Shown piece by piece: positions 4,270 through 13,738 of a stretch of DNA of 64,000 nucleotides. Where the stretch lies: contig JAUXAU010000003.1 in assembly GCA_030619765.1 (NCBI GenBank), positions 11,654 through 75,653 of the forward strand, in the 5' to 3' direction. The notes under the pieces are model-generated. The model saw only the letters and a program-made list of their open reading frames with translations, searched no databases and was not told the DNA's origin. The first letter of the stretch is position 1; each line of letters begins with the position of its first letter. Made by a program: the position numbers and the translations under genes. This DNA is from Thermoplasmatota archaeon (lineage in GTDB: Archaea > Thermoplasmatota > E2 > DHVEG-1).

Positions 4270-6777
4270 ATGAAAAAATCCATACCTATATTTATAGCTA
4301 TTATAATGGTCCTTGGAGGACTTGGGGCAGCTGCCATCAATGTTGATAGCACCGAAAATGCATATTCGAAAACCGTCATTAAAACAATAGAGATCGACTT
4401 TTCAAAACCAAGCTTTGCCGATAGCGATAACAAGTACATCAGATTATATCTTGGAGATGAGGAAACCTACTTGATGAATCCTGGTCAACCAATGATTCCA
4501 AGAGTGCTTAAAACATTCGAGCTCCCCTTTGGAGTAACCAACATAAGGATTGATGCAGAACCATCAGATATCCAAGAACTTGAAATTTCAAAAGAAATAG
4601 AACCCGCACCAGCTCCAGTACCACTAACACCAAGGCCAGATTCCGTCATCCGATCCAAGAAGGATGAAACGGTGTATAATAGCAATGATCTATACCCACA
4701 TGAGTGGTATGGCTCTCATGTTGGTTGTGGATTGAACGCCGAAGGTGAGCACGTTACTCATCTAACAGTAAATGTTTTCCCACTGAGATATAGACCTGCA
4801 TCAGGGAAAATAATTGTAGCTGAGAAGGTTGATATTAAAATAACCTATGAAGATCCAGGATTAAATATTTTCCCGCAGACGAGCACCTATGATCTCGTAA
4901 TTATTACTCCATCAAAATTCTCAAGTGAACTTGAAAGACTAGTTGAACATAAAAACACATTTGGTATGAACACGACTTTAAAAACAACAGAAGAAATATA
5001 TGCTGATCCAAATTATAATGGTAGAGATAAACCTGAGCAAATTAAGTATTTCATAAAGGATGCAATAGAAACATGGGGAATTCAATATGTACTACTTTTC
5101 GGTGGTTTAAAATCGATAATTTATGCAAAAGCCAAAGATGATCAAAACCATGGTGCAAAAGGCTGGCATGTCCCCGTGAGATATTCTAATTTTCAGTATG
5201 ATGGTGATCCAAATTATAACTTCACTAGTGGGGAGCCTGGCTACATCAGTGATCTCTACTATGCAGATATCTACAAAGAAGGAGGCGAGTTCGATGATTG
5301 GGATTCCAATGGAAACGATATATTTGCTGAATGGTCAGGTGACGACCTACGAGATGAACTTGATCTATATCCTGATGTAGCATTTGGAAGACTCGCTGTA
5401 CGAAACAACAAAGAAGCAAAAAATGTAATAACAAAAATCATCGACTATGAAAAACTACCAGCTGACCCAACCTGGTTCAAAAGAATGATCTCGATATCTG
5501 GAGATGGATTCCTCGACCAAGAAGATTGGGATATAGAATGGGACACTGATGGTCTAACAGATGGAGAATATATCATTTGTGCACAAAGCAAAAATCCAGA
5601 GGGAGAAAAAGGGCCAGTCGATGAAATACACATAACACTGGATAAAACAGTTGAAACTAACATAACTTTCAACCATGATGACCACCTCAAAGAAGAACTA
5701 CAAGGTTATCTTTATCCAGCACCACCTATCGCAGAAATCATGACAATATCAAACGGTAACACCCTTGGGAACACAGACTACACCTACAGACCACATGATG
5801 GAGAAGCGTACTGCAACGACCTATACTGGTACGCAAACATCTCCTATGTGGATGAAATTCTTACAATACGTGGGAAATCATATGATCCAAAACCATATGG
5901 TAATATAACCCACATTAAAGTGTGGATTAATAACAGCAATGAAGAAACGATATTTACAGTATGGAGAAATAATACAGAAACGTACTACGAGGGTGAATGG
6001 ATTGTCGGAGAAAAATTCCTACGTGGCAGAGGAGGAGCCCTTACCTATATTCCTGATGATTTCGATACAAACAGTGTGTTTACTTCAAATGGTAAATGGT
6101 TTGATCAATCAGATGTAATCGAGGAGTTTAGCAAAGGATACGGCCTTGCGTTTTTCTCAGGACATGGAAGCCCTGGATGGTGGGGAGATCATTACCCTGG
6201 AATACCGGGTAACAGACGATATGGCTCAGTAGCTGGACTTGTGGTTACTCAGTTATCACCCTACTTCCCGTTTTTAAATTTCCCACTTTTCCCGATGAAG
6301 AAATTAACAAATACTAATAAGCTCCCAGTTGTTAGTGTTGGCGGCTGCCATAACAGTATGTTTAGTATATCGTTGATTCCTGCAATCCTGGACCGATACC
6401 TTCCTTTATACATGCATACCTATGGCACGCCGGTTCCTGAATGCTGGGGCTGGTTTATGGTAAAACTTCCAAAAACTGGTGCTATTGCAACAATGGGCAA
6501 TACTGGATATGGATGGGGATCAGAAGGCGACGTGTGCACAATTGGTACTGGTGACGGGTGGATAAATACTGAGTTTTTCAGGTTATACGGGGAAGAAGAA
6601 CAACATATGCTAGGTATGGCATATATTGGGGCGATATCTAACTATGTAACCCATCATAAGACATTTGAACTTGAGTATTGGCGTCATGACTATGGATGGG
6701 ATGGAATTGATGAGAAGACCGTAGAGCAATGGCAACTATTAGGTGATCCAAGTCTCCAAATAGGCGGATACTCCTAA
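4270..6777 (+). CDS. Secreted C25 (gingipain-type) cysteine peptidase with propeptide
   Basis: Signal peptide; SDLYYAD, PDVAFGRL, FSGHG (catalytic His), GGCHNS (catalytic Cys), WQLLGDPSL. Confidence 0.92.
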   Translation: MKKSIPIFIAIIMVLGGLGAAAINVDSTENAYSKTVIKTIEIDFSKPSFADSDNKYIRLYLGDEETYLMNPGQPMIPRVLKTFELPFGVTNIRIDAEPSDIQELEISKEIEPAPAPVPLTPRPDSVIRSKKDETVYNSNDLYPHEWYGSHVGCGLNAEGEHVTHLTVNVFPLRYRPASGKIIVAEKVDIKITYEDPGLNIFPQTSTYDLVIITPSKFSSELERLVEHKNTFGMNTTLKTTEEIYADPNYNGRDKPEQIKYFIKDAIETWGIQYVLLFGGLKSIIYAKAKDDQNHGAKGWHVPVRYSNFQYDGDPNYNFTSGEPGYISDLYYADIYKEGGEFDDWDSNGNDIFAEWSGDDLRDELDLYPDVAFGRLAVRNNKEAKNVITKIIDYEKLPADPTWFKRMISISGDGFLDQEDWDIEWDTDGLTDGEYIICAQSKNPEGEKGPVDEIHITLDKTVETNITFNHDDHLKEELQGYLYPAPPIAEIMTISNGNTLGNTDYTYRPHDGEAYCNDLYWYANISYVDEILTIRGKSYDPKPYGNITHIKVWINNSNEETIFTVWRNNTETYYEGEWIVGEKFLRGRGGALTYIPDDFDTNSVFTSNGKWFDQSDVIEEFSKGYGLAFFSGHGSPGWWGDHYPGIPGNRRYGSVAGLVVTQLSPYFPFLNFPLFPMKKLTNTNKLPVVSVGGCHNSMFSISLIPAILDRYLPLYMHTYGTPVPECWGWFMVKLPKTGAIATMGNTGYGWGSEGDVCTIGTGDGWINTEFFRLYGEEEQHMLGMAYIGAISNYVTHHKTFELEYWRHDYGWDGIDEKTVEQWQLLGDPSLQIGGYS

Positions 6778-7547: not shown

Positions 7548-7551
7548 ATAT

Positions 7552-7690
7552 GGGAGCATGGTGTAACCCGGCATCATTGTGGGCTCCAGTTAGGAATGAT
7601 TACACGAGGGTCATCTGATCTATGATGAATAACTGGAGCGATGACCTAAGAAGAGACCCGCCGATCTGGGTTCAAATCCCAGTGCTCCCA
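7552..7690 (+). tRNA. tRNA-Trp(CCA) with a 66-nt intron at position 37/38
   Basis: Acceptor stem GGGAGCA/TGCTCCC, anticodon stem GTGGG/CCCGC, loop CTCCAG-[intron 7590-7655]-A, T-loop GTTCAAATC. Confidence 0.95.
7590..7655 (+). ncRNA. Intron-encoded box C/D guide RNA (predicted Cm34 and Cm39)
   Basis: Box C ATGATTA, guide ..GGGTC.. then D' CTGA, C' ATGATGA, guide AACTGGAGC then D ATGA. The N+5 rule lands on C39 and C34. Confidence 0.88.
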
Positions 7691-8983
7691 TATCTCACTA
7701 CTCCTGTTGTTTCCAGTCGAAACAGGGGTTTTTAGTGGTTTTCTTGAATTTATCGAATTATCCTCTCTCGGAGTACGAAATTTAAGGATCCGATTAATCC
7801 AATTATACGGGGCCTGCAGGTAATACATTTTGGCGTATTGTATATAAGCCATAGTCGTTTTTGGATCGGTATGCCCTAACCAACTGCATACTTCAAACTC
7901 ATCGAATTTATCATTTTCGACCTTGGTTTCAATCAGTCGGGCTATTGCACACCAATGCCTCATATCATATGGTCGGAAGGTCGGCCATACTTGTTTTCCT
8001 AATACACTCAATCGATGTCCTAATAGTCTTACTGTAACAGGCTTACCACTTGGCCATAAGAATAAGGTGTTACCACTGTATTGGTTTTCAACTTTTGGGC
8101 GCCAATGATCAATCCAATTTTTGAAACTCTTATGTCGCGGACAGGAAAGGATTTCTTTTCTCGGCAGAATAGTATGTTTTTTATTTCGTTTTTTGACTTC
8201 AGTGATTTCTATGCCACCAGTTCCATCACCATTAATTTGGATGTCATCGATAGTTAATGCACAGAGTTCTGATGGTGGTCTCATACCAATTGTAAACCCT
8301 ATTGTAAAAATGTATTGATACAATTTGGTTTCATAAAGATCGTTGGAATACTTGTAATGCATTATCTGATATACTGTATTAGGAAATGGTAATAACCGTA
8401 AATGAGGTTCAGGTTTTCTTGGTGGTTTAAAATTCCATAGAGGGATCTCATATGCCCTTAACAACATTTTTAAGGCGTCCCATTCGTGGCGTATAGCAGC
8501 GTAACCTGCATTCTCATATTTTATCCTATACCAAGTATGTTGTCGGAAGTTTTCAAGATTGGGATTTTTTAGATCAACAGAGATCTTGTGCATTTCCATA
8601 AAGCGTAAATAACACAAGTGTTTCTCTACCGTTTTTATCCCCAAATGTTGCACTTCTATAGCATTTCGGTAAAGATCTGTAAATGTTGATTGACCAGGTA
8701 TTAATCGTTGTGGGAAATCTGGATATTTAACTCCAAAAATATCTTTTGTATTACATCTTTTTTTCGCCATATCCTGAACCAATCCAGGTTCGAATTGATG
8801 TTTGACAGGATACCAGCTTTTTTCCATTTTTATATTGCATTTTTTATGTTCACATCCTATCCAATCATCGTATGTTTGATGATCAGATAAGGGTAAATTA
8901 AATCCTTTATCATTTATAAAATTTGTGATATCGTTAAAATCTATTAAATGCAAGTTATCATTATTATAATAAATAAATATCAC
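7646..8983 (-). CDS. int: Tyrosine recombinase/integrase whose 3' end crosses attL
   Basis: GMRPPSEL (R), VKK (K), YDMRH (R), LGHTDPKTTMAY (H, Y). Start uncertain: GTG 8983, ATT 8974 or TTG 8953. Confidence 0.92.
   Translation of the reverse strand: MIFIYYNNDNLHLIDFNDITNFINDKGFNLPLSDHQTYDDWIGCEHKKCNIKMEKSWYPVKHQFEPGLVQDMAKKRCNTKDIFGVKYPDFPQRLIPGQSTFTDLYRNAIEVQHLGIKTVEKHLCYLRFMEMHKISVDLKNPNLENFRQHTWYRIKYENAGYAAIRHEWDALKMLLRAYEIPLWNFKPPRKPEPHLRLLPFPNTVYQIMHYKYSNDLYETKLYQYIFTIGFTIGMRPPSELCALTIDDIQINGDGTGGIEITEVKKRNKKHTILPRKEILSCPRHKSFKNWIDHWRPKVENQYSGNTLFLWPSGKPVTVRLLGHRLSVLGKQVWPTFRPYDMRHWCAIARLIETKVENDKFDEFEVCSWLGHTDPKTTMAYIQYAKMYYLQAPYNWINRILKFRTPREDNSINSRKPLKTPVSTGNNRSSEIWEHWDLNPDRRVSS
7679..7691 (+). 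repeat. attL core
   Basis: CCAGTGCTCCCAT, the tRNA-Trp 3' end. Confidence 0.88.
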
Positions 8984-9270
8984 TCCTTTTTTTTCCTGGA
9001 AATAGAAAATAAAAAGTAAAGACCGAAAGAGAGGGGTGATAACTTGAATGCACCCTTTTGGTTGTTTTGGTAGGAGCAAAAACACCCTCTCCAAAGGTCG
9101 GCTTTACAGAATATCCAAATGCAAATGGATTGATAAACGTTTGGTTAGTCAGTCTTTTCCACACCAAAAACAACCAAAGGTAGGAAACACAATCAACAAT
9201 ATAAAACCCCTACCAATATTTTTTTAGTGGCGCACAGATAGTGCATAGAGTTGAAAGCATAAATCAAAAA

Positions 9271-9315
9271 TCATACTGACACTCATACTGACATTTTATG
9301 ATATTTCATATGACA
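9271..9315 (+). promoter_or_regulatory. Direct repeats TCATACTGACA x2 plus degenerate TCATATGACA (operator or arm-site candidates)
   Basis: Copies at 9271-9281, 9283-9293 and 9306-9315, between the divergent int and HTH genes. Confidence 0.45.
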
Positions 9316-9332
9316 TATCAGAGTAAAAATAT

Positions 9333-9926
9333 ATGACATACGATACCCATACCAGAGAGAGGACAATGAAGAAAGATCTAAAGAAAACCAATAAAGAATT
9401 GAAAAAAGATGTAGCCACAGAATTAAGAGATATGGGATATATCAACGATGAGATAAGACGAGCTCTGGGTTGCACAGAGAGAACATTATATAGGTGGCAA
9501 TCCGAAGACATAGACGATGAGCAACAAAAAGAAATAGAACAACAAACAGAAGAGTTAGAACAGAAACAACAAAAAGAAATCGATGAAATTAAAGAACGCC
9601 TTGACAACTTAAGCAGATATTACGAAAATCTATGGAAAGAAAAACACACACCGGAAAAACCGACCGAACAAGATAAAGCCGAGGCAATAATCCTTCAAAT
9701 GATGTTAGAAAGAAGCTTCAAAAACGATAAACTCTTAGAACTGCAGAGACAGAGAACGCGAGAGATATGGGAGACCCACCAATGGATAGAGCAAAACCCG
9801 ATATGGAATGAAACAGAATACACAGAAGGCAATGCGAGATGGCAACGATTGATGGACAAATGGGATGGAAAGATGGAGAGAAAATATAGATATCCCCAAC
9901 AACTACAAGGATATCAAAACCCTTAA
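9333..9926 (+). CDS. HTH plus acidic coiled-coil protein directly upstream of the dual-spacer array
   Basis: GYINDEIRRALGCTERTLYRW (HTH) followed by E/Q-rich heptads. Alternative start at 9366. Confidence 0.8.
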   Translation: MTYDTHTRERTMKKDLKKTNKELKKDVATELRDMGYINDEIRRALGCTERTLYRWQSEDIDDEQQKEIEQQTEELEQKQQKEIDEIKERLDNLSRYYENLWKEKHTPEKPTEQDKAEAIILQMMLERSFKNDKLLELQRQRTREIWETHQWIEQNPIWNETEYTEGNARWQRLMDKWDGKMERKYRYPQQLQGYQNP

Positions 9927-9947
9927 ATAAAAACACAACCATATAAG

Positions 9948-10306
9948 TGCAACCATAAAATACCTGGTAGCCACGTAAAAAATGAAAACCATAAGATAAT
10001 TGCGAGCCAAGGCATCAATGAAAACCATCAATAAATTGCGTAGCCAGAGGTGGGATGAAGCCCATAAAAATCTTGCGTAGCCAATACAGCAATGAAATCC
10101 AGGGTTCACTTGCGTAGCCAAAATATGAATGAAAACCGCGGGTATGTTGCGTAGCCAAGAAAGAAATGAATTCCAAATTGATGTTGCGTAGCCAATAATA
10201 AAGTGGAATCCAACCCATTACTGCGTAGCCAACTGGATGATGAAAACCATATCAATATTGCGTAAGTATGTAAACAATGAAGCACATACAAATGTGCGCG
10301 TAAGCA
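9948..10306 (+). repeat. TIGR-like dual-repeat, dual-spacer array (8 regular units plus degenerate flanking units)
   Basis: Edge repeat TGCG(T)AGCCA, 9-nt spacer A, loop repeat TGAAAACCA-like, 9-nt spacer B. Period 37 nt (36 once); all spacers differ. Confidence 0.85.
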
Positions 10307-10317
10307 ACGCAAAAAGT

Positions 10318-10349
10318 GGTATCGGCCGTTTTTGGGAATAGCCGATACC
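10318..10349 (+). terminator. Hairpin closing the array
   Basis: GGTATCGGC / GCCGATACC, a 9-bp perfect inverted repeat. Confidence 0.5.
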
Positions 10350-10500
10350 TATACCACTAAACAACAGAGAGAAAGCGCTACAAAGCCTTAAAATAAGTAT
10401 TTTTTGTAGAAATAAAAATAAAAACTACCTTTTTAAAAAATGTCTCCTTAAAATCGATTTAAACCAAGGTAGAAATTCAACATTCATACGAACAACACCA

Positions 10501-10833
10501 TCAAGATTGTTTAAAGGGAAGTTCTACAGCTGAAGGTTCAAGCGAGTAACCATAAGACAGAAGCATAGAAATCATTAAAACACAAATCAATGGCAATATC
10601 AACCCTGGTAGGCTAAAAGCAAAAGTTGTGTCAGTAACCACCGCAACAAGAAATGCAACTGTAGGAGCAACCAATCCCCCGCAGATAGGCAATGTAAATA
10701 TAATTCCTATGCTACCGTTACGATCGATTGTAAAAGCGCCCACCACCATTGCAAAAATACCGCCCACAATGATATACAATAAAACGTTACCCACAAGGAG
10801 CTCCTGTATTATTTGTTGCATTGTAGTAATCAT
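10501..10833 (-). CDS. Three-TM membrane protein
   Basis: Three hydrophobic stretches. Confidence 0.7.
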   Translation of the reverse strand: MITTMQQIIQELLVGNVLLYIIVGGIFAMVVGAFTIDRNGSIGIIFTLPICGGLVAPTVAFLVAVVTDTTFAFSLPGLILPLICVLMISMLLSYGYSLEPSAVELPFKQS

Positions 10834-10857
10834 ACTTCAAGCCTCATAGGTGAGTTT

Positions 10858-10903
10858 GGGTTGATTGCAACGAAAGATCTCACTAGAAGATTGCAATCAA
10901 CCC
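10858..10903. repeat. 13-bp perfect inverted repeat with a 20-nt loop
   Basis: GGGTTGATTGCAA / TTGCAATCAACCC. Confidence 0.8.
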
Positions 10904-10947
10904 GCCAAGTTTAGAAGAGTTCGAGGCGCCAAAAGGTTCAGAAGCCT

Positions 10948-11148
10948 TTAAGGAGACTTAGCCCGCTTTTTCTCGCGTTCGTCCAAGATTATCGATGCAC
11001 AATCTTCACTAATCAGATTTCGTTTTCCGAATTCATAAATCTTTTCATCCGAATACGTACTGGCCCACCGATACTCCAAGATAGAACACGGATGGAGCTC
11101 CGCTTCTTCCTTTTTGGCTTCTGGGATATATACTTCTTCTTCTGGCAT
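10948..11148 (-). CDS. Small hypothetical protein
   Basis: MPEEEVYIPEAKK.. within track ORF 10948..11220. Confidence 0.45.
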   Translation of the reverse strand: MPEEEVYIPEAKKEEAELHPCSILEYRWASTYSDEKIYEFGKRNLISEDCASIILDEREKKRAKSP

Positions 11149-11253
11149 TGTTAACAAACCTTCTATATCTGTAGATGTAGACCTGGCTAATAAAAGTAAC
11201 TGGGCACCCCCTACCCCCAAAAGTTATACATAGAATTTGGATCTGGGCCCCGA

Positions 11254-11505
11254 ATGCCAAACCCTAAAAAAACTATGTCCATCAATCGAACCGTATGGGT
11301 TAAGGCAAGAAAAAAAAGACTACGACACAGTAAAAAACACGGTGTAAAAATCGGTAGAAATTGCTTATTGTGTGTTTATGGGAATACACCCATTAACACA
11401 GACGCAAAAGTTCGATGTTCATTCCATAACCCCGATGTTGTGTTCGATAACAAAAAAGGATATTGGATATGCTACACATATCAATACGATAAAAGGTTAT
11501 CCTGA
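11254..11505 (+). CDS. Small basic Cys/His-containing protein (possible Zn binder)
   Basis: K/R-rich N-terminus; CLLC..C..H..C. Confidence 0.5.
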   Translation: MPNPKKTMSINRTVWVKARKKRLRHSKKHGVKIGRNCLLCVYGNTPINTDAKVRCSFHNPDVVFDNKKGYWICYTYQYDKRLS

Positions 11506-11676
11506 TGACAACATTATATTTATCAAAAATCCACAGAGAAACAAAAGTTACCCCCTGTGGTAACTGTAGATTTATTGGATGTGCAAACACCTATACCAAA
11601 CGATTGTCATAACAACCATTAGAATAAAAACTAATTCCGTTTTTACAATCTGTTATAAAGTCATCAGTAAAATTTC

Positions 11677-11808
11677 TTATCTTTCAGAACTATATATCTT
11701 GTTAAGAAGGTATGATACTTCTCCACTGATTGACCTGTAGTTTTCTTTTGCTTTTTCCCGCAGTAGTTTCTCATCTTCTTTTGATAATGATATCGTTATT
11801 TTTGCCAT
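11677..11808 (-). CDS. Ribbon-helix-helix (Arc/CopG-like) repressor, 43 aa, absent from the track
   Basis: MAKITISLSKEDEKLLREKAKENYRSISGEVSYLLNKIYSSER: alternating beta-strand, helix, RSIS..V turn. Confidence 0.85.
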   Translation of the reverse strand: MAKITISLSKEDEKLLREKAKENYRSISGEVSYLLNKIYSSER

Positions 11809-12060
11809 AAAGCCAATTACTATAGATAGAACTTTCAATCGTTTTTCTAATTTATACGAATATATACTACAAAGGAATTAAATAGATGTATAAGGATGTC
11901 TATTTTAATAGAATGAAAGAAAAAATTAGAAAACCGATGAAAAAGGAAGAAATGAGTTTTGCAATGCGATGTTTCTATTATGGTTACAAAGCATATTATA
12001 TGAATTTAGACTAACCCCATAAAAATATTTTTGGGATTAATTGATTTTATTTTTTGATAA

Positions 12061-12261
12061 CTAAACAATACCTATAAATACAAACAAACCGCCAATACCC
12101 CCAATTTTTGTGCAAGGGAACGATAATTCGATGGGCAACGTTATTTTTTTCCCGTTCCTACGTATCAGAAACGGTGTGCCTACGTAAAAACTATCGTTGT
12201 CAATCCAATGCCTTTCATAATACCTAAAATTGTTATTTAGTCCTATTCTTACAACTATCAT
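12061..12261 (-). CDS. Small hypothetical protein
   Basis: ORF collinear with the minus-strand gene run. Confidence 0.4.
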   Translation of the reverse strand: MIVVRIGLNNNFRYYERHWIDNDSFYVGTPFLIRRNGKKITLPIELSFPCTKIGGIGGLFVFIGIV

Positions 12262-12444
12262 TATATAGTATTAACAGTTACTTTAACTCCAATAGTTATA
12301 CTGAAAAAGTATACCTGGAACTAAGCATAGACTGTTCACGGAGTTATGGGCAAACCCTCCTGGTATTTAACCAGGGCGATTACTTAGCATATGCTTATCC
12401 CAGGTGTTTATTACTGAATACTGAAATTGTAAGTCATTTGCCTC

Positions 12445-13269
12445 TTACAATTTCTTATTCTTATCTTTAGGCCCAACAGGTTTGTCAGGTTCAGATTTGT
12501 TAGACGATGTAGTCCCTATATCGTCTATTATACTGTTAATACCGTCAATTAGGCTATGTAACATATCTATGTCTTCAGGTAATCCAATATAATTTTTGGC
12601 CCAACCAAAACCAACACCTTCGCTACCGTCAGTTAAGGTTACCTCAATCATCGGTCCGCTATCAATGGAGTAAAAGATACCGTAGTCTCCTTCTTTTTTC
12701 GTTGTTTTAATCCATTTGTCATCATTATGTGCCTCAGAAAATAGTTTTAATTCTTTAGGTCTGCTACTTCTGTTGCCTTTTGCCATTTTACAGTTCACCT
12801 CCTGTATGCTATGTTCTCGCATTTTAGTCGATGAAACCAAAAACTCAGACCGAAAAATCATTTTTTCCTCTTTTCTTTCTGTCGCAACAGCGACAGTTTC
12901 ATCAGTTTTAGAGAAATCACTTTTTCTCGTGTGAGTTTCCTTCGTTTGTGTTTCATCAGAAATTTGAGAACCGTGAAACTTAGAATTTTTAATCTTAGAA
13001 CCTGAAAGCCTGCCATCGGCCTTTTTTTCAAAAATGATATTGACTTGACGAATTGTAATCTTAAAATCCAGGTTTTTCCACTGTGCAAATTCTTGGAGGT
13101 ATTGCACAATTTCAATTTCTTTCCAACCTAATTTATCTCTCATAAAACAGACTAAAAATAATCGTTCAGGATCTCGGGCATTTGGATCTTCAATTATTCT
13201 GTTCAGTTCGTTACGCCATTTATTGCTTTTAATGAAATATCGGGAAGTGTTATCATCTGTAAAAGTCAT
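12445..13269 (-). CDS. Putative replication protein: PriX/PriL-CTD-like helical N-domain plus beta-rich C-domain
   Basis: RLFLVCFMRDKLGW..EIVQYL...WKNLDFKITIRQV resembles the primase large-subunit C-terminal pattern (by eye). Confidence 0.5.
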   Translation of the reverse strand: MTFTDDNTSRYFIKSNKWRNELNRIIEDPNARDPERLFLVCFMRDKLGWKEIEIVQYLQEFAQWKNLDFKITIRQVNIIFEKKADGRLSGSKIKNSKFHGSQISDETQTKETHTRKSDFSKTDETVAVATERKEEKMIFRSEFLVSSTKMREHSIQEVNCKMAKGNRSSRPKELKLFSEAHNDDKWIKTTKKEGDYGIFYSIDSGPMIEVTLTDGSEGVGFGWAKNYIGLPEDIDMLHSLIDGINSIIDDIGTTSSNKSEPDKPVGPKDKNKKL

Positions 13270-13565
13270 TGTTTATTCTCCTTACAAAAACTACAATATC
13301 CAAAATATCCATCAATGTATAAAATACCCTTTTTATTGACTACAGACTTACAGCTGGCAATCAAAAAATGTCGTTGTTGGTTGCAATTAATACAATAATG
13401 AATAATGTAGGGTTGTTGCCAGATAATCTTAATGTCATCGGGTTTACTATTTTTTTTGTTAATGTATGCAATTTTCCAACCTAAATCTCGTAAGGTTTTC
13501 TTTTCATTGCCAATGTCAATATAATTAGGAATAAACTGTTGTCTAGACAACGGATTTACCTCCAT
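13266..13565 (-). CDS. Zn-ribbon protein
   Basis: CINC..CSFC; overlaps the next gene by ATGA. Confidence 0.65.
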   Translation of the reverse strand: MEVNPLSRQQFIPNYIDIGNEKKTLRDLGWKIAYINKKNSKPDDIKIIWQQPYIIHYCINCNQQRHFLIASCKSVVNKKGILYIDGYFGYCSFCKENKQ

Positions 13566-13725
13566 AATTAAGATCTTCCAAAAAAGTAATTTTAATGGGT
13601 TTTGGTTTTGAAGATAAAAAAAAGAAAAAGAAAAGTTTAAAGTGTTTGGAATTGATATCTGAAATCAAGAAGGCGTAAAAATGGAATTTCTTGATCAAAT
13701 TCCCTTCTGTTGGTGTATGGGAGTT

Positions 13726-13738
13726 CCAGTGCTCCCAT
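13726..13738 (+). repeat. attR core
   Basis: Exact copy of CCAGTGCTCCCAT. Confidence 0.88.

Follow-up and report, generated by a model that had tools for sequence, protein, structure and literature searches.

A dual-repeat TIGR array carried without tas on a small archaeal integrative element, and a candidate Tas partner elsewhere in the genome

Introduction

TIGR-Tas systems were first described in 2025. In the dual-repeat type of TIGR array, 9-nt spacers are separated by two repeats of 8-12 nt in alternation (Faure et al., PMC12045711). Each repeat runs from a UG (box D) to a CCA (box C), the loop repeat being rich in A and the edge repeat containing one extra, covarying pair; the arrays carry truncated edge repeats at both ends, followed by a terminator (PMC12045711). 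Where TIGR systems cleave, they leave 8-nt 3′ overhangs, with the cut falling 5′ of the DNA base paired to spacer position 5 (PMC12045711). Repression mediated by TasA has also been demonstrated (bioRxiv 10.64898/2026.09.09.750476). According to the literature, the natural targets of TIGR systems and their biological role are still open.

The locus described here lies in a 64-kb window of DNA (the whole stretch analysed, 64,000 nt). Among known systems, TIGR-TasA of Flavonifractor plautii (FpTIGR; Faure et al. 2025, PMC12045711) resembles it in its UG...CCA edge and loop repeats, its units of ~36 nt that each hold two 9-nt spacers, a terminator downstream of the array, and a nuclease-free Tas partner encoded in the genome. 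The two differ in that the window array lies apart from tas, on a 6-kb integrative element and on a different contig from both tas genes of its genome, and in that an additional U in the edge brings its unit to 37 nt. Operons of tasParB and tasA with arrays have also been reported (PMC12045711); a second locus in the window's genome, on contig C16, is of exactly this type, but its repeats, unlike those of the window, lack the UG box. The tas gene that concerns us most is on contig C96, and the solved relative closest in sequence to its product (C96 Tas) is TaTIGR-TasR from a Thermoproteota archaeon (PDB 9MTY). Like the window system, TaTIGR-TasR is archaeal and dual-repeat; box C/D contacts and an additional pair in the edge are likewise common to both. 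However, TasR is a DNA-cutting protein with an active RuvC nuclease, whereas C96 Tas lacks RuvC, and for it binding or repression would therefore be expected instead of cutting.

Two other kinds of guide RNA locus invite comparison. In orphan or virus-borne mini-CRISPR arrays, the element carries the guides only and the effector lies elsewhere, an arrangement thought to serve conflicts between elements. These arrays differ from that of the window in RNA grammar, effector family, and targeting, as TIGR uses two 9-nt spacers on opposite DNA strands. Archaeal box C/D sRNAs, which work with Nop5, are single genes with K-turn boxes, whereas the window contains a tandem array without such boxes; moreover, TIGR has a DNA rather than an RNA target and involves no methyltransferase.

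In the literature searched, we found no account of TIGR arrays that move about without tas. The published TIGR surveys in that literature start from tas genes and are thus blind to such arrays. The reading that we favour, with somewhat better than even confidence, is that the window holds a genuine array, carried as a ~410-bp cassette on an element without tas and loaded in trans by the TasA-type C96 Tas.

Results

Anatomy of the array

Judged by its sequence-level features, the stretch is a genuine dual-repeat TIGR array (Table 1). An initial annotation had called it TIGR-type, and its repeats fit every published sequence-level feature of such arrays (PMC12045711). An edge repeat of 9-10 nt, UGCG(U)AGCCA, and a loop repeat of 9 nt, UGRANNCCR, alternate strictly across eight units, and all 16 regular spacers, two per unit, are exactly 9 nt long. 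This alternation and spacer length had been proposed initially and are borne out by the positions of all repeats; the eight A/B spacer pairs listed at the time are all correct. The edge TGCGTAGCCA is present six times in the 64-kb window, always within the array (at 10037, 10074, 10111, 10148, 10185, and 10222) and at a strict 37-nt period. The variants TGCGAGCCA (at 10001) and TGGTAGCCA (at 9965) lie 5′ of these copies, and loops matching TGRANNCCR begin at 9983, 10019, 10056, 10093, 10130, 10167, 10204, and 10241. The period of 37 nt in the initial annotation holds from the third unit to the eighth; it does not hold for the first two units, which have 9-nt edges and measure 36 nt.

UG (box D) opens and CCA (box C) closes every regular repeat, apart from one loop that ends in CCG. 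The loops are A-rich between the boxes (UGAAAACCA or UGAAAUCCA). In the edge UGCG(U)AGCCA, C3 pairs with G6 or G7, forming the extra edge pair, and in related arrays beside a related Tas gene (TGTGAACCA and UGUGAACCA) the corresponding pair is U3-A6. The swap from C3-G to U3-A6 between arrays indicates that the edge pair covaries, as described for dual-repeat arrays (PMC12045711).

Both the degenerate flanking units and the hairpin after the array that the initial annotation had noted are present, and the hairpin is a strong one. The 111-nt trailer that contains it has a predicted folding energy of -32.6 kcal/mol (z = -3.4), and 0/200 shuffles were equally stable. On the other side, a (C/T)TTAAAT(A/G) box lies 17-25 nt upstream of the first repeat in the window array, in arrays on C11, C13, C52, and C96, and at locus L029. 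Its sequence and placement suggest that the array is a transcription unit of its own, with this box as its archaeal TATA box.

Table 1. Features of the window array and its carrier element, and the second TIGR system of the genome. Positions are those of the window unless a contig is given.
Feature	Position	Strand	Basis or remark
tRNA-Trp(CCA), 66-nt intron at 37/38; 3′ end = attachment site	7551..7691	+	ARAGORN, introns allowed
Tyrosine integrase	7646..9094	-	Pfam Phage_integrase E=2.6e-9; PHROG integrase E=2.5e-17
attL, left copy of 13-bp direct repeat CCAGTGCTCCCAT	7679..7691	+	single copy remains in the empty sites of G045 and G047
Integrative element, 6,047 bp	7692..13738	.	insertion relative to congeners
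P0001, 197-aa HTH + coiled-coil protein, element backbone gene	9333..9926	+	weak HTH_23 match
TATA-box-like CTTAAATA, predicted array promoter	9922..9929	+	overlaps P0001 stop; 18 nt 5′ of first degenerate repeat
Dual-repeat TIGR array	9948-10306	+	eight regular and about three degenerate dual-spacer units
Degenerate leader-proximal half unit	9948..9964	+	TGCAACCA + 9 nt
Eight regular TIGR units (edge, spacer A, loop, spacer B)	9965..10258	+	units 1-2 36 nt, units 3-8 37 nt
Degenerate trailer units and small GCG-N7-CGC hairpin	10259..10310	+	homologous to C11 array trailer
Terminal hairpin GGUAUCGGC...GCCGAUACC	10318..10349	+	folding z = -3.4; compensatory change in C11 copy
T6 run, likely archaeal terminator	10400..10405	+	alignment; present in array-less relatives too
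110-aa membrane protein, element backbone	10501..10833	-	61% identity with L002 counterpart
274-aa element protein, not a Tas	12445..13269	-	matches none of Pfam, PHROGs, NCBIfam, PDB sequences
attR, right copy of 13-bp direct repeat CCAGTGCTCCCAT	13726..13738	+	direct-repeat match; empty-site comparison
Second TIGR system (L008): ParB-like gene, 239-aa TasA, ~830-nt array, then DnaB-like helicase gene	C16:24731-26960		

The carrier element

The small integrative element of the initial annotation is real. Its flanks abut in two congeners, G045 (C1:1040553|1040554) and G047 (C61:18291|18290), and these empty sites prove the insertion and set the size of the element at 6,047 bp. As in other tRNA-integrating elements, there is a tyrosine integrase, direct repeats coincide with the 3′ end of a tRNA, and the site is empty in relatives. 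The integrase gene, which probably starts further downstream than the listed TTG, crosses attL with its 3′ end and extends into tRNA-Trp. Besides the genes in Table 1, the element contains several small ORFs without known relatives.

The tRNA-Trp was missed by ARAGORN at default settings and by Rfam at the gathering threshold. Guides within tRNA-Trp introns are known in Euryarchaeota, and the intron in the window (7588-7653) resembles them: it is box C/D guide-like, with ATGATTA, CTGA, and TGATGA motifs, and one stretch, TAACTGGAGC, is complementary to the anticodon loop of the same tRNA. Just left of the tRNA is a gene for a peptidase C25 (gingipain-like; window 4270-6777). From its gene content, the host is an archaeon, with the intron-bearing tRNA-Trp, genes whose sequences look like TFB and Alba, and a Nop-domain gene taken as Nop5.

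The array as a cassette

Comparison with related elements identifies the array as a discrete cassette of ~410 bp within the 6,047-bp element. Three metagenomic relatives (L002, L003, and L007) have the same backbone, consisting of an HTH protein (44-49% identical), the membrane protein, and two small ORFs, and no array; in these, the HTH gene continues directly into the conserved downstream segment that includes the T-run. In the nearest relative, L004 (HTH protein 62% identical), the same repeats follow right after the gene, with different spacers. The initial annotation had reasoned that identical spacers across related elements would point away from guide function, and the spacers of L004 are not identical to those of the window.

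Leader, trailer, hairpin, and two units of the window array recur in a paralogous cassette on contig C11 of the window's genome. The two common units carry 1-3 point changes and the remaining units differ, while the hairpin contains a compensatory C-G to U-A change in its stem. Since both L004 and C11 keep the module while the spacers vary, the window array behaves as maintained cargo.

We considered whether the array could instead be a decaying relic, that is, a cassette that recombined in from a tas-linked array and is now disused. Degenerate units at both ends of the array, related elements that do without it, and the outcome of our target searches, which found no targets in the cell's own genome or in viral contigs, are all consistent with decay. 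Decay is harder to reconcile with six identical edge repeats and spacers that are all exactly 9 nt long, with a TATA box and hairpin that are conserved between paralogous cassettes down to the compensatory stem change, with the retention of six tas-less arrays in one genome, and with the retention of the module, with different spacers, in L004. We therefore regard a relic as unlikely.

In the array-less relatives L002 (8690-8740) and L007 (1225-1275), the end of the HTH gene and the following ~40 nt resemble one degenerate unit, reading AATAGCCA-N9-CCCCAACCA-N9-..GCGCCA. This unit could be a remnant of an array or a seed for one.

No protein family recurs in the neighbourhoods of tas-less arrays. 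Two apparent leads were set aside: the similarity between the C-terminus of P0001 and short frames that precede the arrays of C11 and C13 is more readily attributed to a conserved array leader at the DNA level, and cross-matches that suggested a shared protein family beside tas-less arrays came from ORFs read through the arrays themselves.

Tas genes elsewhere in the genome

According to the initial annotation, the array had no recognisable Tas gene. This is correct for the element and for the 64-kb window, in which six-frame searches with PF01798 and NF052498 found no Tas or Nop domain, but not for the genome, which contains two tas genes, on C96 and C16. The genome (G000) is represented by a 3.17-Mb bin of 134 contigs, 88.8% complete; we take its contigs to share one cell, and a third tas gene could be missing from it. 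Across the whole bin, a six-frame search with Pfam Nop matched one gene only, on C127, which is probably the housekeeping Nop5. NF052498, the NCBIfam model of the TIGR-Tas endonuclease family (TIGR_Tas_endo; cut-off 100 bits), matched two genes, C16:25413-26033 (158 bits) and C96:5086-5970 (138 bits). The window's own contig had no match to either Pfam Nop or NF052498.

C96 Tas (294 aa) matches TasR (9mty; E=1.2e-23) and TasH (E=2e-18). The alignments begin at the coiled-coil start of TasR and TasH, and the RuvC and HNH parts are absent, which assigns C96 Tas to the TasA class. Y269 and H276 of C96 Tas align with the processing residues Y289 and H296 of SpTasH, and both are invariant in four archaeal Tas proteins. 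From these alignments, C96 Tas looks able to process guides and unable to cut DNA.

The C96 tas gene is flanked on both sides by long arrays on the same strand, with UGCGAGCCA/UGAAGCCCA repeats. Borrowing of a Tas in trans had been one of several options in the initial annotation, and these flanking arrays, which have the same grammar as the window array, make it the option that the evidence favours. The repeats of the C16 array, AGCGAGYCA and AGAAAACCA, have no UG box, and on this ground the C16 Tas is an unlikely partner for the window array.

Related-locus searches of genome-contig and viral-contig collections found no close relative of C96 Tas, and congeners have only paralogous TFB modules at the place that corresponds to the C96 tas island. 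A TFB-gene module of ~1.2 kb is present at C96:858-2091 and ~20 other places, its paralogues in the genome and in congeners being 69-75% identical. An ORF of 1,378 aa (C96:19231-23367) lies near the C96 arrays. In the arrays that flank C96 tas (C96:3924-6708), the spacer pair TCGGGATAC/TTGTAATAG is found 3-4 times with point changes and the pair TGTAACATC/TATAGAGAG twice. Such recurring pairs point to segmental duplication.

We also examined partners other than Tas. The P0001 gene, which shares the strand of the array, stops 22 nt short of it; its product has weak phmmer matches to Nop5 (E about 2.5), and the host has one Nop5 gene, such that either P0001 or the host Nop5-fibrillarin-L7Ae complex might be imagined to serve the array. 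However, the Nop5 matches of P0001 fall in its coiled coil and are not significant. Alignment of P0001 with four Tas proteins by hhalign gave a probability of 0.08%, and P0001 does not match NF052498. The AlphaFold model of P0001 (pLDDT 74) consists of a small HTH and three long helices, and Foldseek matches the HTH only. In addition, P0001 homologues are found without arrays and arrays are found without P0001 homologues. On the phmmer, model fold, hhalign, and Foldseek results, P0001 is rejected as a hidden Nop protein, and the suggestion of a new effector is disfavoured, as the adjacent HTH protein is not Nop-like. L7Ae and Nop5 need RUGAUGA/CUGA K-turn boxes. The window repeats do not contain these box C/D sequences, which disfavours the use of host Nop5, another option raised initially. 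Overall, a non-Tas partner is very improbable.

Co-occurrence of arrays and tas

A regex scan of the genome found at least nine arrays of the window type, as runs on C11, C13, C52, and C78, at C96:18518, in the window, and, in three cases, beside C96 tas; these three runs correspond to one upstream array and one downstream array that the scan split in two. Six arrays in the genome, including that of the window, are tas-less. Counted across the family, the unit pattern has 18 occurrences in this genome and a single one in the remaining 107 genomes, namely in G059; a backward-read control of the pattern had 0 occurrences in all 108.

A metagenome scan for the window grammar matched at least 120 contigs, and 80 loci were examined. 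In 45 of the 80 loci (45 of the 48 that were decidable), tas adjoins the array, in every case on the same strand and with a median gap of 10 nt. This association identifies the window repeat family as genuinely TIGR without reference to this genome, although the window array itself has no tas directly upstream or downstream. Within the 108 family genomes, tas scored above the cut-off in five, and multi-unit arrays of the window type are present only in G000 and G074, both of which have tas. Both tas and arrays are missing from the five congeners of G000. At C30:1327-1367 of G059 (L011), a genome without a Tas match, there are one or two units of window grammar, which may represent another tas-less mini-array.

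The association with tas bears on a role at the DNA level, in which the repeats would serve the element's replication or partition, as iterons or as binding sites for proteins. The array does adjoin a DNA-binding HTH protein, and the analogous C11 protein has a weak KfrA_N-like match. Nevertheless, the repeat grammar is identical to that of the arrays adjoining tas in 45 loci, the array is strand-specific, with a predicted promoter and terminator, and spacers differ between related elements. We find a DNA-level role barely credible; this role and a non-Tas partner are both much less likely than an unseen Tas, a relic, or a decoy.

The extra U in the edge

Arrays with and without tas differ in their edges. 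The 10-nt edge UGCGUAGCCA, with an extra U and a 37-nt unit, is found in seven tas-less arrays (C110, C11, C13, C52, C78, L004, and L055), which are those with enough units to be scored for edge type. Tas-adjacent arrays, both those on C96 and those at tas-linked metagenomic loci, predominantly have the 9-nt edge UGCGAGCCA and a 36-nt unit, and no 10-nt-edge array is next to tas among the 45 tas-linked loci. Because of this difference, compatibility of the window array with C96 Tas is assumed. Edges of 9 and 10 nt are mixed within the window array, at its unit 2, and within the array at C96:18518. The extra U falls between the bases of the edge that pair, in the region cut during processing. 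Its effect may be nil, it may alter processing, or it may be the mark of a different cognate Tas.

If the extra U marks a different cognate Tas, the array could be loaded in trans by a 10-nt-edge-specific protein, encoded in the 11% of the genome that the bin lacks or by a co-infecting virus, and C96 Tas would be uninvolved. The use of UGCGUAGCCA by all seven tas-less arrays, with UGCGAGCCA predominant beside tas, would fit such a protein, as would the incompleteness of the bin. We nonetheless consider it rather unlikely. None of the 45 tas-linked loci pairs a 10-nt-edge array with tas, both edge types coexist inside single arrays, and an extra base in the unpaired middle of the edge should matter least.

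A change in processing would fit a different idea, in which the transcript is an RNA decoy that mimics tigRNA precursors and titrates the Tas of a rival element, in the manner of phage RNA anti-CRISPRs. Related cassettes differ in their spacers yet hold the exact spacer length, which would be needless for a sponge, and the extra U may be neutral. For these reasons, a decoy seems quite unlikely to us, even though the element has an array and no effector, the one-base edge change at the processing site is systematic, and no targets were found in the genome itself.

Exact-pattern scans for the 10-nt-edge unit in the genome-contig and viral-contig collections had no match. At C78:1110-1250, the short C78 array gives way to a long low-complexity tract rich in CT (CTCTCCCTCTCTC...) between inverted CCCCCGGGGG motifs.

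A proposed model for loading in trans

Loading by C96 Tas remains our preferred reading, and we infer from it how transcription, processing, trans-loading, and target binding of the window array might proceed. The + strand would be transcribed from the array's own TATA box, perhaps supplemented by transcripts that read through from the HTH gene upstream. The transcript would be cut within the edge repeats to release tigRNAs of 36-37 nt, each with two 9-nt spacers, and both cutting and loading would be carried out in trans by the nuclease-less, TasA-type C96 Tas. The loaded Tas dimer would then bind 18-bp A + revcomp(B) DNA sites and silence or obstruct them without cutting, to the benefit of the element. 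That C96 Tas would bind rather than cut DNA is expected by analogy with TasA-mediated repression (bioRxiv 10.64898/2026.09.09.750476).

A broader proposal is that tas-less elements carry promoter-equipped TIGR cassettes of a distinct 37-nt, extra-U subtype, which reprogram or jam the TasA of another element. We offer this proposal tentatively, as possible but doubtful.

The genome is a compact natural case, with a minimal element on which the array is the only recognisable cargo, five more tas-less arrays, and two tas loci of different types. Should trans-loading prove true, guides and effector would be split between rival mobile elements, pointing to a role in inter-element conflict or regulation. 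Should tas-less cassettes reprogram or jam a foreign TasA, they would represent guide piracy or an RNA decoy, and thus a conflict between elements conducted via TIGR guides alone. C96 Tas, together with arrays of 36-nt and 37-nt units, provides a simple pair for examining the tolerance of Tas for foreign arrays.

Searches for targets

From the overhang length and cut position of TIGR cleavage (PMC12045711), the target is likely to read A + revcomp(B), without a gap. We searched G000, with arrays masked, for 70 spacer pairs in this arrangement and in three control arrangements. The A + revcomp(B) arrangement had 0, 1, and 55 matches at 0, 1, and 2 mismatches, respectively, compared to 0-1, 2-3, and 58-81 for the controls. 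Thus, A + revcomp(B) is not enriched over controls in the cell's own genome, and there is no sign of self-targeting. The only exact 18-mer (C133:2660, - strand) corresponds to unit 6 of the window in B+A order, AATTGATGT+AGAAAGAAA; this is a control arrangement, the site is in coding-like sequence, and the match is probably due to chance.

Viral contigs were scanned with four window spacer pairs, accompanied by two control scans. One of the four pairs had five viral matches, all falling at a single conserved site within a helicase of SNF2 type on giant-virus-like contigs, while the other three pairs and the two control scans had zero. The helicase site was rejected as a target on host-range grounds and treated as chance. 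A search for 18-bp targets had been suggested in the initial annotation, where clustered exact hits were expected to support guide function; it gave neither enrichment in the genome itself nor a credible viral site.

The spacers of G000 have a composition of their own. Across 505 metagenomic spacer pairs from the same repeat family, spacers are neither C-poor nor purine-rich, and the 70 pairs of G000 are both, with ~9% C (1-16% by position) and an excess of purines on the RNA strand.
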